In this document: positions 31,236 to 37,715 of the stretch, piece by piece
Numbering within the stretch: position 1 is the first letter of the stretch
How the letters are laid out: each line of letters starts with the position of its first letter
Origin: Escherichia coli
Lineage (GTDB): Bacteria > Pseudomonadota > Gammaproteobacteria > Enterobacterales > Enterobacteriaceae
Reading direction: 5' to 3' (one strand)
Assembly: GCF_044647545.1 (NCBI RefSeq)
Contig: NZ_CP172818.1
DNA: 64,000 bases
The notes under the pieces: model-generated
The model's input: only the letters and a program-made list of their open reading frames with translations
What the model was told of the DNA's origin: nothing
Databases searched by the model: none
Program-made: the position numbers and the translations under genes

Positions 31236-31244
31236 CTTATGACT

Positions 31245-31344
31245 GCCTGATGCGCTACGCTTATCAGGCTTGGGAAGATGGTGCAATATATTGAATTTAC
31301 GCGATTTTGTAGGCCGGATAAGGCGTTCACGCCGCATCCGGCAT
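31245..31344. repeat. Cluster of two REP elements (BIME-like)
   Basis: tgcctgatgcgctacgcttatcaggc and gtaggccggataaggcgttcacgccgcatccggc. Confidence 0.6.
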
Positions 31345-31393
31345 GAACAACGAGCACTTTGCCAACAAACTGAATAGCTCAAGGGAATTCAAA

Positions 31394-31888
31394 ATGAAGA
31401 CCAAAAGGAGTCTGGTCGTCAGAGTGGCATTAATTACCGCCACACTACTGCTGACAGCATGCGCCCAACCTGAACAATCATCATTAGCTGGTGACTGGTT
31501 ACTGACCCCTAAAGATAAAACCAGAGGATTAACGGGGAGCATTGCGGTAAATATTGCGCCTTCCCGGTGTAAGACAAATTGCCGTGGCGATAACTTACCT
31601 GATAATACCCGCCGCTGGCAGTTGTCAGGCGGGAACGAAAAAGAACTTACTTATCTTCATGATATGTCAGCACAAGAAAAGACCGGTTTAAATCCTGAAT
31701 GGCAATGCTACACCTCATTTTTTATGGGGATTTGCCAGGGTAAGCCCGGCACTCGACCGATAGTTAATGAGGATTATGTCAGCGAAAGCGGATTTTTTGG
31801 CTCGATGATGCATGTCGGGATTATTGAGTTGCGACGCTGTCAGTCAGAAAATTGCCAGCAAGAATTGAAAGCGATAAACACACATTAA
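31394..31888 (+). CDS. ybfP: Lipoprotein YbfP
   Basis: ORF 31343..31888; 164 aa from MKTKRS, lipobox LTAC. Confidence 0.8.
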   Translation: MKTKRSLVVRVALITATLLLTACAQPEQSSLAGDWLLTPKDKTRGLTGSIAVNIAPSRCKTNCRGDNLPDNTRRWQLSGGNEKELTYLHDMSAQEKTGLNPEWQCYTSFFMGICQGKPGTRPIVNEDYVSESGFFGSMMHVGIIELRRCQSENCQQELKAINTH

Positions 31889-31928
31889 AATAGCGAGTCC
31901 GGGAATGAAACCCGGACCTGAACATGTC

Positions 31929-32579
31929 TTATTGCGTGATTGTTTCTTTCATTTGATACTGCATTTCCCAGAGTTCAGTAAGCGAAATAACTTTTCTTGT
32001 TCTTGCTTCTTCACATTGTACCCATAAGAAAGGGTAGAAAGTGAAGGCTTCCGTTGCCGATAATTTTATTACGTCTTCTTGCCATTGCGGCCAGCGTACA
32101 TTTTCATAGAAGGTATCTAAATCACCGGATAATGCCCACTGAAGAAACTCAGAATATCCAACCTCCAGACTTTCCCAATTCAGCGTATCTGGCGCAAAAT
32201 AATAAACGCAGCCAGTATCTTCCCCAAGATCGCCACCATTAAGAGCAAAAATTCCCCCTGCGACATCATCGGCGATGGGTAAAGCCCGCACGCTTGCGAA
32301 TTCAGGGCGTTGTGTCCAACTTGCTGGATCTCGTGGTAACCGGGGGTGACCAGAGCCTGCTATGCGTAACCAACCGTTATCAATCAGCAGACCTCCGGAG
32401 CCATAGACAAGCGCACCCATCGGTGATTTTGTTGTAACCTGTAATTGATAAAGTGCGGTTTCGGCTAAATCTTTATTAACCGGTAAGAGTTCGGCATGGT
32501 TTGTGGCTTCTTTTAACCAATTCTGGATTATTGGCCAGGCTGAATCTTCAGTATTTACTAACTGACTCACTTCACGCAT
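31929..32579 (-). CDS. ybfG: DUF2625-type uncharacterised protein
   Basis: ORF 31929..32687; start at MREVSQL preceded by AAGGAG 9 nt upstream; intact here. Confidence 0.6.
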   Translation of the reverse strand: MREVSQLVNTEDSAWPIIQNWLKEATNHAELLPVNKDLAETALYQLQVTTKSPMGALVYGSGGLLIDNGWLRIAGSGHPRLPRDPASWTQRPEFASVRALPIADDVAGGIFALNGGDLGEDTGCVYYFAPDTLNWESLEVGYSEFLQWALSGDLDTFYENVRWPQWQEDVIKLSATEAFTFYPFLWVQCEEARTRKVISLTELWEMQYQMKETITQ

Positions 32580-32702
32580 CGCTACTTGCTCCTTGTGTGC
32601 TACGGTGTCATTTATGATGAGGCATTGTATGGGACATTTTTTAAATATTAAGTTCCTTATATTTGAATAAAAAATGACTTTATCCATACATTGCCACTTT
32701 TT

Positions 32703-32846
32703 TCAAAGCATAAACCGATACCCAATACCGGCTTCAGTAATGAAATGGCGGGGCGGACGAGATCCTGTTCCAGTTTTTGTCGCAAATGCCTCATATAATT
32801 ACGCAAATAGTTGCTGTGTTCGACCGCGTTTGGACCCTACACCTGC
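32703..32846 (-). pseudogene. ybfI: Remnant of an OmpR-family response regulator 3' end (kdpE-like fragment)
   Basis: About 140 bp nearly identical to the 3' end of kdpE at 37040..37180 in this window. Confidence 0.7.
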
Positions 32847-32880
32847 CGGATGCGGCATAAATAACGAACTCTTTGTCAAC

Positions 32881-32917
32881 AAACAGAAAGGGCGATCATT
32901 CAATCGCCCTTTTTTAT
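32881..32917. terminator. Bidirectional hairpin terminator downstream of potE
   Basis: agggcgat-loop-atcgccct stem with flanking A/T runs. Confidence 0.6.
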
Positions 32918-32927
32918 TTCGCTTTTT

Positions 32928-34247
32928 TTAACCGTGTTTATTTTTCAGTTCAAAGCGTGGAGATACCAGACCATACAGTGTCCAACCAAGGAAGGTCACG
33001 ATGGAACCGTACAGCATGGCTTCTTCCCCGGATGAGTACAGCGCATAGAAACTGTACATCGCACCAACAAAGGCAACAAAGTTTGCTACTTTCGCTTTTG
33101 ATGGTGGCACATTGGCGACCTGCTGAATAATGACTAACGCCGCCATCGACAGAATATACGGGATGATATTGGTCACAACGGCCAGGTTAACCAGCACGTT
33201 GAACTGACTGTTCAGCGACGGGCTAATGGTCATCAGTGATAATCCGCTCTGGATGATGACAATGGTCAGCATTCCCTGTACTGGTGCATCGACTTTGCTC
33301 ACACGGGAGAAAATTTTCGGGAAGTACCCTTCATCGGCAGAAGATTTAAACACCTGGGCAATGGTGAACTGCCAGCCAAGCAGCGAACCGCAGCAGGACA
33401 TCACCATCAGCGCCATAATGACTTTACCCACTCCCGGCGTGAACATCTGTGCGAAGGCCAGGCCAAATGGTGCCGTTGAATTTGCCAGCTCCATATTTGG
33501 CACAATCCCGGCAATCACGTTGGTGGAGACGATATAAATCACCGCCGCACCTAACGTACCGCCAAGAACTGCAATCGGCACGTTACGTTCCGGGTTTTCA
33601 ACTACTTCGGCGTTGGCACAGGCAGACTCCAGACCGAGGAAAGCCCACAATGTCATGGCGATGGAGGAACCTACAGCGCTAAAGAACGGTACATGATGAG
33701 GGTTCCATGAGTTAGCGTACAGCGTCGGGCTAAACCAGAACCAGCCGATAATGCACAGACCGACGACCGGAATAATGACCCCCCACACAGTAATGCTACT
33801 GATTTGCCCGGTAATGCGCGCACCACCAAAGTTAGCCACGGTACAAATCCACAGCACTCCGATGGTCGCAAGACCAATCTGCACTGGCGACAAACTCGCG
33901 CCGAGCAGTTCGGTGCCGTAACCAACCGCCGAAATAGCAATCGCGACGTTAGCAATCAGCAGCGAGACACCGTAGGTGTAGTTCGCCATAAAGTTCCCTG
34001 ATTTACCGAAAGCATACTCCGCATAACCGCCCATACCGCCTGATTTACGGCTGAACATGCCGCATTTTGCGAATGCCCATGCCAGCGCCATTGAGCCTAC
34101 GGCTGTCACCAGCCAGGAGATAATTGAGATTGTCCCAACTTCGGCAAGCTTTGTCGGCAGCATGATGATACCGGAGCCCATCATGTTGACCATCGTCAGT
34201 ATGGTTAACTGAACGACGCCCATCTTGTTCGATTTAGCCTGACTCAT
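32928..34247 (-). CDS. potE: Putrescine-ornithine antiporter
   Basis: ORF 32928..34307; 439 aa from MSQAKSNK; APC-family permease. Confidence 0.9.
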   Translation of the reverse strand: MSQAKSNKMGVVQLTILTMVNMMGSGIIMLPTKLAEVGTISIISWLVTAVGSMALAWAFAKCGMFSRKSGGMGGYAEYAFGKSGNFMANYTYGVSLLIANVAIAISAVGYGTELLGASLSPVQIGLATIGVLWICTVANFGGARITGQISSITVWGVIIPVVGLCIIGWFWFSPTLYANSWNPHHVPFFSAVGSSIAMTLWAFLGLESACANAEVVENPERNVPIAVLGGTLGAAVIYIVSTNVIAGIVPNMELANSTAPFGLAFAQMFTPGVGKVIMALMVMSCCGSLLGWQFTIAQVFKSSADEGYFPKIFSRVSKVDAPVQGMLTIVIIQSGLSLMTISPSLNSQFNVLVNLAVVTNIIPYILSMAALVIIQQVANVPPSKAKVANFVAFVGAMYSFYALYSSGEEAMLYGSIVTFLGWTLYGLVSPRFELKNKHG

Positions 34248-36442
34248 AATTTTTCCCCTTTCAGCAGGGTGCTTTGCGCACCACGAGGCTTGATGACATA
34301 GCACCAAACTTGCTTACGACCATCATGTTCTTCGATATAGACACCCTGAAGCTCCGGTGCAAAACCTGGCAGCAGGTTGATCCCTTCTTCCAGAGCGCTG
34401 AAGTAACGCAGAACAGCACCACCCCAGATTTCACCCGGAACAACACACAGCACTCCCGGAGGATAAGGAAGCGCACCTTCTGCAGCGATACGGCCTTCTG
34501 CATCCGGCAGACGAACCAGCTCCACTTCACCGCGTAAATAGGCGTAGTTGGCTTCTTGTGGATTCATGCTGACACGTGGGAAGTGTTCCTTACGAAACAT
34601 CTCTTTTTGCAGTTGTTTCACGTTGTGACGGGCATACAAATCATGCATTTCCTGACACAACTGACGCAGGGTATAACCGGTGTAGCGCTCTTCATGCTGT
34701 TTGTAGATGGAAGGCAGTACTTCTGATAATGGCGCGTCGGACTCAAGCAGTTTTTCGAAGCGTACCAGCAGAGCAGCAAGTTGCTGAAGTTTGGCCATAT
34801 CTTCTGCCGGAGTCAGCAGAAAGAGGATGGAGTTAAGATCGCATTTTTCCGGCACTACGCCATTTTCGCGCAGGAAGTTAGCAAGAATCGTCGCGGGTAC
34901 ACCGAACGCTTCATATTCGCCGTTACGTGCATCAATACCTGGGGTTGTCAGCAACAGTTTGCACGGATCGACAAAGTATTGATTCTCTGCATAGCCTTCA
35001 AAAGAATGCCAGTGCTCACCTGGTACAAACTGGAAGAAGCGCAGATCAACCGCAATTTGCGCTGTTTCATACGACTGCCAGGGTTTACCATCCACCAGTT
35101 CAGGTACGAATGGACGAATATGCTGACAGTTATCGAGGATCAGTTTGCGGGCATTAATGCCATTTACCACACAATCCATCCACATATTACGACCGCTGAC
35201 ACCTTCATGCATTTTGGCGTTGATATCCAGTGCGGCAAACAGCGGATAGAACGGGCTGGTGGAGGCATGCATCATAAAGGCGTTGTTCATGCGTTTGTGC
35301 GGTACATAACGCTGTTGCCCTTTGATATGGCTGTCTTTTTTATGGATTTGTGAAGTCTGGGAAAAACCAGCCTGCTGTTTATGCACAGATTGCGTAACCA
35401 GAATACCCGGATCGTTCTCATTTAGATCCAGTAACAGCGGTGAACAGTCCGCCATCATCGGGATAAACTGCTCATAGCCGACCCATGCGGAGTCAAAGAG
35501 GATGTAGTCACACAGATGACCCATTTTATCCACCACCTGACGGGCGTTATAAATCGTACCGTCGTAAGTGCCTAGCTGAATAACGGCGAGGCGGAAAGGA
35601 CGCGCCTCTTTTGCCCGCTGCGGTGCGACTTCTGTAATCAGTTCGCGCAGGTAATTTTCTTCGAAGCAGTGGGCATCAATACCACCGATAAAGCCATACG
35701 GGTTGCGTGCGGTTTCCAGATAAACTGGTGTTGCGCCAGCCTGTAGCAACGCTCCGTGGTGATTAGATTTATGGTTATTACGGTCAAACAGCACCAGATC
35801 CCCCGGTGTTAACAGGGCGTTTAAAACCACTTTGTTAGAAGATGAAGTGCCATTTAGAACGAAGTATGTTTTATCGGCATTAAACACTTTTGCCGCATGT
35901 TGCTGTGCAATGCATGGCGCGCCTTCGTGAATCAGCAGATCGCCCATTGCCACATCCGCGTTGCACAAGTCAGCACGGAACAGCGCCTCACCAAAGTATT
36001 CCACAAACTGATTCCCCGCCGGATGGCGACGGAAAAATTCGCCGCCCTGATGACCGGGGCAATCAAACGCGCTGTTACCCTGATTGACATAATCGACCAG
36101 TGCGCGGAAGAAGGGCGGGCGCAGTTGAGTTTCATAATGGCTGGCTGCGGTTTCTAACTGACGACCATAAAATTCTCGTCGCGATTCGCAATTCTCAAAG
36201 ACACCCGAAATACGGGGCAAATACTCTGCGGGTACACGTTCTTGATTTTCAGTAGCAATAAATACCGGGATGCCATAACCCGTGGCATCGATTTCATCGA
36301 GTTTTCCGCGTGTAACATCGTTGAGCGATAAAACTATTGCCGCCACATCGATATTACTGTTTTCATTAATATAGATACATTCTCGCTGCGTGGTAAAACA
36401 GTCCGGGCAAGAATCACTAACCGCAATTTTTAATTTTGACAT
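34244..36442 (-). CDS. speF: Inducible ornithine decarboxylase
   Basis: ORF 34244..36520; 732 aa from MSKLKIAVS; fold-III PLP decarboxylase. Confidence 0.9.
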   Translation of the reverse strand: MSKLKIAVSDSCPDCFTTQRECIYINENSNIDVAAIVLSLNDVTRGKLDEIDATGYGIPVFIATENQERVPAEYLPRISGVFENCESRREFYGRQLETAASHYETQLRPPFFRALVDYVNQGNSAFDCPGHQGGEFFRRHPAGNQFVEYFGEALFRADLCNADVAMGDLLIHEGAPCIAQQHAAKVFNADKTYFVLNGTSSSNKVVLNALLTPGDLVLFDRNNHKSNHHGALLQAGATPVYLETARNPYGFIGGIDAHCFEENYLRELITEVAPQRAKEARPFRLAVIQLGTYDGTIYNARQVVDKMGHLCDYILFDSAWVGYEQFIPMMADCSPLLLDLNENDPGILVTQSVHKQQAGFSQTSQIHKKDSHIKGQQRYVPHKRMNNAFMMHASTSPFYPLFAALDINAKMHEGVSGRNMWMDCVVNGINARKLILDNCQHIRPFVPELVDGKPWQSYETAQIAVDLRFFQFVPGEHWHSFEGYAENQYFVDPCKLLLTTPGIDARNGEYEAFGVPATILANFLRENGVVPEKCDLNSILFLLTPAEDMAKLQQLAALLVRFEKLLESDAPLSEVLPSIYKQHEERYTGYTLRQLCQEMHDLYARHNVKQLQKEMFRKEHFPRVSMNPQEANYAYLRGEVELVRLPDAEGRIAAEGALPYPPGVLCVVPGEIWGGAVLRYFSALEEGINLLPGFAPELQGVYIEEHDGRKQVWCYVIKPRGAQSTLLKGEKL

Positions 36443-36699
36443 TTTCCAACTCTTTATTTTTGGTAATAGCAGGTCCTCAATTTCTCGAATGAGAAATCGA
36501 TCGTGCCGGAAAAAAAGCAAAGTTACCCCGCTGATAAATTAATCAGAAGTTTGCTTTTTTCAGAATGCAGAAACCCTTATCAGTCCGGTGGCTGATAATA
36601 CAAGGGTTAACAGAGAATGAGCACTGCGGAATACAGGCATATGCCTGTAATACAGAGAGTCAGGAAGACCTGTACGCTGAAGTGCCCTTAGTCGGTAGA

Positions 36700-36804
36700 C
36701 TAACGGGCATTGAAGAAGTGAAAGTCGAAGCTATTGCGATGAGCAAACTTCATAATATGAGTTGTCCGCCTTATATGGGGCATAGTGCGGCTGTTATTTT
36801 CCAT
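36700..36804 (-). CDS. speFL: SpeFL leader peptide (ornithine-sensing ribosome-arrest peptide)
   Basis: 34-codon ORF MENNSRTMPHIRRTTHIMKFAHRNSFDFHFFNAR on minus strand with AGGAAAGG SD upstream. Confidence 0.7.
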   Translation of the reverse strand: MENNSRTMPHIRRTTHIMKFAHRNSFDFHFFNAR

Positions 36805-37037
36805 TTAATTTACCTTTCCTGATGTGAATGAAGGTGAAGGTATTCTATCCAGGAAATACGGTTGAACTGTGAAGGTGATCAATAAAAAATGATCAATCTT
36901 AATTTATTTAATGATGAGCTTTTTACTCAGTAATATAAAATATTGAATTGTTATTTTTGTGTGTTGTTTAAGATAAAAAGCCGTATTTATTATTACGGCT
37001 TTAATTAATAAAAGGCAGGATGTATTAAAATTAATAT

Positions 37038-37715
37038 TCAAAGCATAAACCGATACCCAATACCGGTTTCAGTAATGAAATGGCGGGGGCGAGCGGGATC
37101 CTGTTCCAGTTTTTGTCGCAGATGTCCCATATAAATACGCAAATAATGGCTGTGTTCGACCGCGTTTGGCCCCCACACCTGGTTAAGGAGCTGGCGCTGG
37201 GTGAGCACTTTTCCGGCATTGTTGAGCAGCACCGCCAGCAGGCGAAACTCAATCGGGGTGAGATGCACCTCTTCCTCACCGCGATGGATCACGCGGGCGG
37301 CTAAATCGACGGTCACATCGGAAAATTTCACCAGCGGATCGGGCGCGGTGGTGGCGGAGTGGCGGCGTAAAGCGACGCGCAGACGGGCCTGCAATTCGCC
37401 AATACCAAATGGCTTACTCAGGTAATCATCCGCTCCGGCATCCAGCGCGGCGATTTTGTCGCTCTCTTCGCTACGTGCGGAAAGCACAATTACGGGCACC
37501 GCGCTCCACTGGCGCAGGTCGCGGATAAACTCAATCCCATCGCCATCGGGCAGGCCGAGATCGAGAATAATCAAATCTGGTTTACGGGTTGCCGCTTCCA
37601 GCAAGCCCCGTTGTAGCGTTTCGGCTTCAAAGACGCGCATACCGTCGCCCTCCAGCGCTGTGCGCAGAAAGCGACGAATAGCTTGTTCATCTTCAACAAT
37701 CAGAACGTTTGTCAC
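37038..37715 (-). CDS. kdpE: KDP operon response regulator (OmpR family)
   Basis: 225 aa ORF, receiver Asp plus winged-helix C-terminus. Confidence 0.95.
   Translation of the reverse strand: MTNVLIVEDEQAIRRFLRTALEGDGMRVFEAETLQRGLLEAATRKPDLIILDLGLPDGDGIEFIRDLRQWSAVPVIVLSARSEESDKIAALDAGADDYLSKPFGIGELQARLRVALRRHSATTAPDPLVKFSDVTVDLAARVIHRGEEEVHLTPIEFRLLAVLLNNAGKVLTQRQLLNQVWGPNAVEHSHYLRIYMGHLRQKLEQDPARPRHFITETGIGYRFML

Follow-up and report, generated by a model that had tools for sequence, protein, structure and literature searches.

The leader ORF speFL upstream of speF-potE in an Escherichia coli genome: identity, conservation and leader RNA

Organisation of the locus

The window analysed here is a stretch of 64,000 nucleotides of Escherichia coli DNA (contig NZ_CP172818.1). 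Positions 36700..36804 of its minus strand hold an ORF of 34 codons that starts with ATG and, according to both the ORF list and the sequence, encodes the peptide MENNSRTMPHIRRTTHIMKFAHRNSFDFHFFNAR. It is located downstream of kdpE and precedes speF on the same strand by 257 nt; potE comes after speF. The features of the ORF and the neighbouring genes are as follows:

37715..37038, minus strand: kdpE, upstream of speFL (RefSeq annotation)
36813..36820, minus strand: Shine-Dalgarno (SD) sequence AGGAAAGG, its last G 8 nt 5' of the speFL ATG (read from the sequence)
36700..36804, minus strand: speFL coding sequence, 34 codons and a UAG stop (sequence, PDB identity, and RefSeq annotation at equivalent coordinates)
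36804-36802, minus strand: ATG of speFL (read from the sequence)
36757..36777, minus strand: HIRRTTH, codons 10-16, the ornithine-recognition motif of the sensor domain (sequence; role from 10.1101/604074)
36766..36771, minus strand: AGG CGG, the consecutive rare Arg codons R12 and R13 (sequence)
36703..36765, minus strand: effector domain, codons 14-34, with F20, F26, F28, F30 and F31 (sequence; role from bioRxiv 10.1101/604074)
36700..36702, minus strand: UAG stop of speFL, straight after R34 (sequence; toeprints and cryo-EM in 10.1101/604074)
34244..36442, minus strand: speF, the regulated gene, encoding the inducible ornithine decarboxylase (TIGR04301 ODC_inducible, 1429 bits for a cut-off of 1310; RefSeq)
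32928..34247, minus strand: potE, the second gene of the operon, encoding the putrescine-ornithine antiporter (NF007938, 852.8 bits for a cut-off of 409; RefSeq)

An AAAGG/AGGA-type element is found at the equivalent place before speFL in related loci.

The surroundings of the operon carry some features of their own. An intrinsic-terminator-like hairpin, AAAGCCGTA...TACGGCTTT with a T-run, occupies 36977..37002 (minus strand), 36 nt past the kdpE stop, and is presumably the terminator of the kdp operon. A copy of the 3' end of kdpE (145 nt, 90% identity), labelled by RefSeq as a winged-helix pseudogene, is located just downstream of potE (32702..32845). This copy opens a stretch of about 1.65 kb (31238..32887) between potE and pgm, which includes a DUF2625 gene and is missing in O157:H7, where pgm directly follows potE. 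The stretch looks like the scar of an old rearrangement or insertion.

Identity with known SpeFL

All 34 residues of the peptide coincide with those of the SpeFL chain in the stalled-ribosome cryo-EM structures PDB 6TBV/6TC3 (E = 7.6e-20). The 701-nt stretch around the ORF shows up to 100% identity in complete E. coli genomes, and RefSeq labels the feature at the equivalent position in E. coli genomes, between kdpE and speF-potE, "leader peptide SpeFL". Together with the following 113 nt, the ORF is base-for-base that of K-12 MG1655: compared with the K-12 gene the ORF shows no differences, and the window departs only at scattered sites, before the ORF and farther down the leader. The defining features of SpeFL, and the SpeFL used for toeprinting and cryo-EM, are those of Herrero del Valle et al. 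(bioRxiv 10.1101/604074). Every published hallmark is found in the window: the UAG stop, the 257-nt spacer, HIRRxxH at positions 10-16, AGG CGG at codons 12-13, the Phe core and the stop-codon hairpin.

The first-pass annotation had described a 34-codon ORF with its own SD at 36700-36804 and had named it the SpeFL leader upstream of speF. The former statement is borne out by the ORF list, the ATG and UAG codons and the presence of AGGAAAGG; the latter is supported by the full-length match to the PDB chain, the annotated position and the distance of 257 nt to speF-potE. It is almost certain that the ORF is speFL, the leader ORF of the E. coli speF-potE operon, and that it works by the published ornithine/Rho mechanism. 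SpeFL in the window is therefore not new, being already characterised and already annotated.

The sole Pfam match of the peptide is PF10940 (SpeFL, formerly DUF2618), the family in which SpeFL was placed by 10.1101/604074, with E = 4e-5 over residues 8-33. At 23.8 bits, the peptide, which is the founding E. coli sequence, narrowly misses the curated gathering cut-off of 25 bits; elsewhere, the same model gives 47 bits for a Shewanella-type homologue and 27.9 bits for the O157-type E. coli allele. This near-miss reflects the construction of the model and not a doubtful identity. A search of NCBIfam with the peptide returned no SpeFL model.

Annotation of speFL is uneven. The feature under the match is called 'hypothetical protein' in some RefSeq E. 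coli genomes (hits H17, H42 and H43), and records of O157:H7 carry an additional hypothetical ORF of 44 aa (L082, 6225..6359) that overlaps the start of speFL.

Conservation across species

A set of 80 speF-like loci, anchored on SpeF, was drawn from a collection with one genome per species, and the flanks were searched by tblastn for SpeFL and PotE. Among these 80 loci, a SpeFL-like ORF is present upstream in every speF-potE locus with sufficient upstream sequence, with one exception (L069). The genera concerned are Escherichia, Citrobacter, Salmonella, Enterobacter, Kluyvera, Hafnia, Serratia, Yersinia, Proteus, Morganella, Edwardsiella, Shewanella and Sutterella-like bacteria. The exception is a Pseudomonas locus whose downstream transporter is only 53% identical to PotE, and in which tblastn found no SpeFL-like ORF. 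Similarly, no SpeFL-like ORF was detected by tblastn in loci that lack potE and show 68-72% identity to SpeF (L055, L068, L070-L075 and L078-L081, mostly Pseudomonas); these look like speC-type paralogues. In one Sutterella locus (L065) the SpeFL-like ORF is present and potE is absent from the 1.5 kb fetched.

The coding signature was examined in the 44 loci with a 34-codon MENN-type ORF, each compared with the window. Mismatch rates at codon positions 1, 2 and 3 are 0.13, 0.13 and 0.43, respectively, and synonymous codon differences outnumber non-synonymous ones (478 vs 291). Amino-acid identity reaches 83% in frame as against 50% in the other two frames. Residues M1, E2, N3, N4, H10, I11, R12, R13, H16, M18, R23, F26 and F28 are invariant in these 44 loci. 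Conservation of HIRRxxH and of the C-terminal motifs, which had been proposed earlier as a check on the assignment, is thus positive, with H10, I11, R12, R13 and H16 in the former and F26 and F28 in the latter. Codons 12-13 are the same, or other rare Arg codons, in most Enterobacteriaceae loci.

The length of the ORF by itself is at chance level, as the surrounding stretch of 900 nt is overlapped by 19 ORFs of 20 aa or longer. What places SpeFL beyond chance is the 34/34 identity to the PDB chain, the RefSeq annotation and the cross-species conservation with its coding signature. Identity and conservation also speak against an origin of the ORF by chance in an AT-rich spacer, and this reading was rejected.

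SpeFL was described only in gamma-proteobacteria by 10.1101/604074. Divergent SpeFL-like ORFs also precede speF in Betaproteobacteria (Sutterella and Burkholderiaceae: L052, L057-L059, L064, L065 and L077, at about 1000-1335 of each locus), and potE comes next after speF in most of them. An example from Sutterella is MHVNAYVQNSVIRRIRHIMCFVCRSCFSFHRFSSASTNAS. These ORFs have Val or Thr at the equivalent of His10 and extend 5-17 residues beyond the FxxF core, so that any stall in the Sutterella-type ORFs would occur during elongation and not at the stop codon. Their mismatch rates by codon position, 0.15/0.17/0.47, form a coding signature, and they reach 23 bits on the Pfam SpeFL model.

Stop-codon hairpin, candidate rut site and leader RNA

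The end of speFL and the spacer that follows it carry the following RNA features:

36683..36709, minus strand: stop hairpin TGCCC-G-TTAGTC-TACC-GACTAA-GGGCA, over codons 33-34 and the stop (minimum-energy folds)
36691..36750 (about), minus strand: candidate rut, poor in G and rich in C, in the 3' half of speFL (C 0.28-0.35 and G 0.12 in 40-nt windows; composition scan, limits inferred)
36443..36699, minus strand: speFL-speF leader spacer, 257 nt, a conserved structured RNA (length as in 10.1101/604074)
36686-36681 with 36625-36620, minus strand: covarying helix in competition with the stop hairpin's outer stem (alignment fold)
36717-36713 with 36454-36450, minus strand: 5-bp pairing between speFL (codons 30-31) and the SD region of speF (consensus fold; invariant)

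In the published model, the stop-codon hairpin is a pause hairpin for RNA polymerase, and a rut site overlapping speFL was described in the same work (10.1101/604074). Across 26 Enterobacteriaceae sequences, the pairing of the stop hairpin is maintained in 84% of cells, compared with 24-41% in slid controls, and four of its pairs show compensatory changes. It is confined to Enterobacteriaceae, being absent in Hafnia, Serratia, Yersinia and Proteus, and is therefore not essential to the system everywhere. In Hafnia, Buttiauxella, Serratia, Yersinia, Proteus and Morganella (L029-L051), the stop of speFL is mostly UAA, and the tail after it is C-rich and apparently without structure, for example CTCCCCTCC. 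This suggests that, outside Enterobacteriaceae, Rho is loaded without a pause hairpin.

The 257-nt spacer folds better than its shuffled versions (z = -3.6), and the consensus fold of the leader obtained with RNAalifold from 18 species contains 73 pairs, 19 of which show compensatory changes. The 5-bp pairing between speFL and the SD region of speF is invariant across species, and is for this reason neither supported nor refuted by covariation. The Salmonella equivalents of these leader structures have been tested experimentally (PMC6386406).

A further hairpin in the leader is located at 36510..36561 (minus strand), where a AAAAAGCA...TGCTTTTT stem, conserved in 18 Enterobacteriaceae species, encloses a CTGAT/ATCAG hairpin and is followed by a T-run. 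A terminator scan flags 36532..36516, followed by TTTTTTT. K-12 departs from the window in this hairpin by small internal indels. No intrinsic terminator was reported in the Salmonella leader (PMC6386406), and the supplements of a 3'-end mapping study (PMC7815308) contain one antisense site only and no 3' end in the speF leader.

An Rfam scan of 36443..36835 gave no family match at E <= 1. The only hit in the stretch scanned, BcKCsr2 within speF (20.3 bits for a cut-off of 40), was set aside as a chance match. The speF leader element of alpha-proteobacteria in Rfam, which we take to be RF00518, is likewise cis-regulatory and precedes an ornithine decarboxylase gene; however, it is a non-coding RNA motif from a different bacterial class, and the leader in the window does not match it at this threshold.

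Putative promoter region

A conserved hexamer is found upstream of the SD sequence:

36842..36847, minus strand: inferred -10 box TAGAAT (conserved TA[A/G]AAT)

The distance of the TA[A/G]AAT box from the speFL ATG is fixed across Enterobacteriaceae, both E. coli haplotypes included. In Salmonella, where the transcription start has been mapped, the AUG of orf34 is at +32 (PMC6386406). When this spacing is carried over, transcription in the window would start near 36835, with the ATG of speFL at +32. The 157-nt Rho-terminated transcript of Salmonella would then end near 36679 in the window, just beyond the stop hairpin. A simple sigma-70 scan upstream of speFL did not detect a full promoter, which is consistent with an activator-dependent promoter.

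Farther upstream, the conserved motif TTGATCACCTTCACA (36868..36882, minus strand) resembles the CRP/FNR-type sequence TGTGA-N6-TCACA and is a putative site by this resemblance. Its equivalent in Hafnia and Serratia is a perfect GTGA-N6-TCAC. The centre of the motif is about 40.5 nt upstream of the inferred start at 36835, an arrangement shared with class II activator-dependent promoters. At its upstream edge it overlaps with a conserved GATC-N10-GATC pair.

Mechanism of speF-potE control

SpeFL is a textbook-grade case of metabolite sensing by a nascent peptide, and controls the putrescine synthesis induced by acid and ornithine. Identity, anatomy, conservation and RNA structure come from the present analysis. 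For ornithine binding, stalling and Rho dependence we rely on published work with the identical sequence, for which ornithine-dependent, puromycin-resistant stalling and bicyclomycin-sensitive control of speF have been reported (10.1101/604074; PMC6386406).

Under the published scheme, speFL would be translated from its own SD near the 5' end of the speF mRNA. When ornithine is low, the ribosome would terminate at UAG and depart, the AGG CGG codons would hold back the ribosomes that follow, and the C-rich rut over the 3' half of speFL would become exposed, allowing Rho to end transcription just beyond the stop-codon hairpin. When ornithine is high, a single L-ornithine would lodge between 23S rRNA and the loop that HIRRxxH forms in the nascent peptide. 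The Phe-rich C-terminal part would compact in the exit tunnel and shift U2585 to a place where it obstructs RF1. Release would be blocked and the ribosome would stall with codon 34 in the P site and UAG in the A site. The stalled and queued ribosomes would mask rut, Rho could not load, and RNA polymerase would continue into speF-potE.

The equivalent of E. coli SpeFL in Salmonella Typhimurium is orf34 (Ben-Zvi et al. 2019, PMC6386406). In Salmonella, leader translation additionally opens up a long-range RNA pairing that conceals speF's ribosome-binding site, and the speF mRNA undergoes arginine-dependent decay via the two Arg codons (PMC6386406). The two systems differ in detail: the spacer is longer in Salmonella (378 nt in an arizonae locus, vs 257 nt in the window), and the stop codon of S. 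Typhimurium orf34 is UGA (PMC6386406), compared with UAG in the window.

AGG CGG has been assigned a role both in slowing translation and exposing rut (10.1101/604074) and in the arginine response (PMC6386406). The latter raises the possibility that the leader ORF chiefly senses arginine supply or translation speed, such that pausing at the two rare Arg codons picks the fold of the leader and hence the RNase G-dependent decay of speF mRNA, as put forward by Ben-Zvi et al. for Salmonella orf34. The occurrence of AGG CGG at codons 12-13, common in relatives, agrees with this, as do the arginine-dependent destabilisation and alternative structures reported in PMC6386406; moreover, the covarying helix, as a competitor of the stop hairpin's outer stem, makes alternative folds plausible. 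However, ornithine-dependent activation was observed both in PMC6386406 and in the cryo-EM study, a frameshifted template with a changed peptide loses the stall (10.1101/604074), and conservation at the amino-acid level extends far beyond the two Arg codons, which a device based purely on codon pausing does not need. As a main mechanism, arginine sensing is therefore improbable, and it is best read as an extra layer and not as a replacement for ornithine sensing.

Still less probable is a classical attenuation leader of the trpL/hisL type, in which the hairpin and T-run at 36561..36510 would serve as an intrinsic terminator/antiterminator. Although the terminator scan does flag this hairpin and its larger stem is conserved, it is positioned about 140 nt past the speFL stop, too far to be influenced directly by a ribosome on speFL, and its stem consists mostly of A-U pairs. 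The ORF contains only two regulatory codons, both for Arg, and no run of them, and the terminator-like hairpin is the sole one found. Termination just after the stop hairpin is Rho-dependent and bicyclomycin-sensitive (10.1101/604074; PMC6386406). A T-run attenuator was rejected as the main mechanism on grounds of distance and of this published Rho dependence.

Control by an ornithine-sensing peptide through Rho, as published for SpeFL, follows the same logic as TnaC of tnaCAB, where a short leader peptide, together with a free amino acid in the exit tunnel, blocks the release factor at the stop codon and the stalled ribosome masks rut from Rho (10.1101/604074). TnaC differs in that its sequence is unrelated, its ligand is tryptophan, the tunnel site is another one, and RF2 acts at UGA. 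SpeFL thus resembles TnaC in its working and is a separate family.

The overlapping plus-strand ORF

A longer ORF overlaps speFL on the opposite strand:

36565..36822, plus strand: 85-aa shadow ORF with an ATG start (ORF list)

The first-pass annotation had treated it as a shadow; the ORF does exist and the results are consistent with that view, since, of 44 related loci, only 2 retain an open antisense frame of at least 85 codons, and a Pfam search with the 85-aa product gave no match. The converse reading, that the plus-strand ORF is the true gene and the minus-strand 34-codon ORF its chance antisense shadow, is favoured by the greater length of the former and its ATG, and has a negligible probability in view of these two results, of a substitution pattern that fits the minus-strand frame and of the RefSeq records inspected, in which speFL is annotated and the plus-strand ORF is not. 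SpeFL in the window adds nothing new to what is published; it does illustrate that a real gene of 34 codons can be recovered even when it is buried under a longer antisense ORF in simple ORF lists.

Two control-region types within E. coli

The analysis leaves some small leads for follow-up, none of which changes the verdict on speFL: the Sutterella SpeFL-like ORFs, the structured leader without an Rfam family, and a control region that exists in two types in E. coli.

These two types are sharply distinct. They diverge over a block of about 0.9 kb, roughly 37060..36150, which covers the kdpE stop, the promoter, speFL, the leader RNA and the first ~300 nt of speF. With a 398-nt query comprising speFL and the leader, the two are only ~73% identical, compared with 93-99% in the flanks. 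The type of the window and K-12 (257-nt spacer) was found in about 1,700 complete genomes at 95% identity or more to this query; the O157:H7 type (310-nt spacer, SpeFL beginning MENNNRLMPH...) was found in about 3,300 complete genomes at ~73% to the window query. No match to the query was obtained in a further 382 genomes.

The nearest relative of the O157 type is E. albertii (85%); the window type has no close counterpart in the species sampled, its best match being Citrobacter-like loci at ~78%. Both types keep the sensor and effector residues of SpeFL, AGG CGG, UAG, the stop hairpin and the TAGAAT box; the leader RNA is largely different. It could be imagined that the two types are maintained regulatory variants with different thresholds or kinetics of speF-potE induction. 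This is rather unlikely, and a functional difference between them is pure conjecture. Within this polymorphism, the window carries the minority, K-12-type form.
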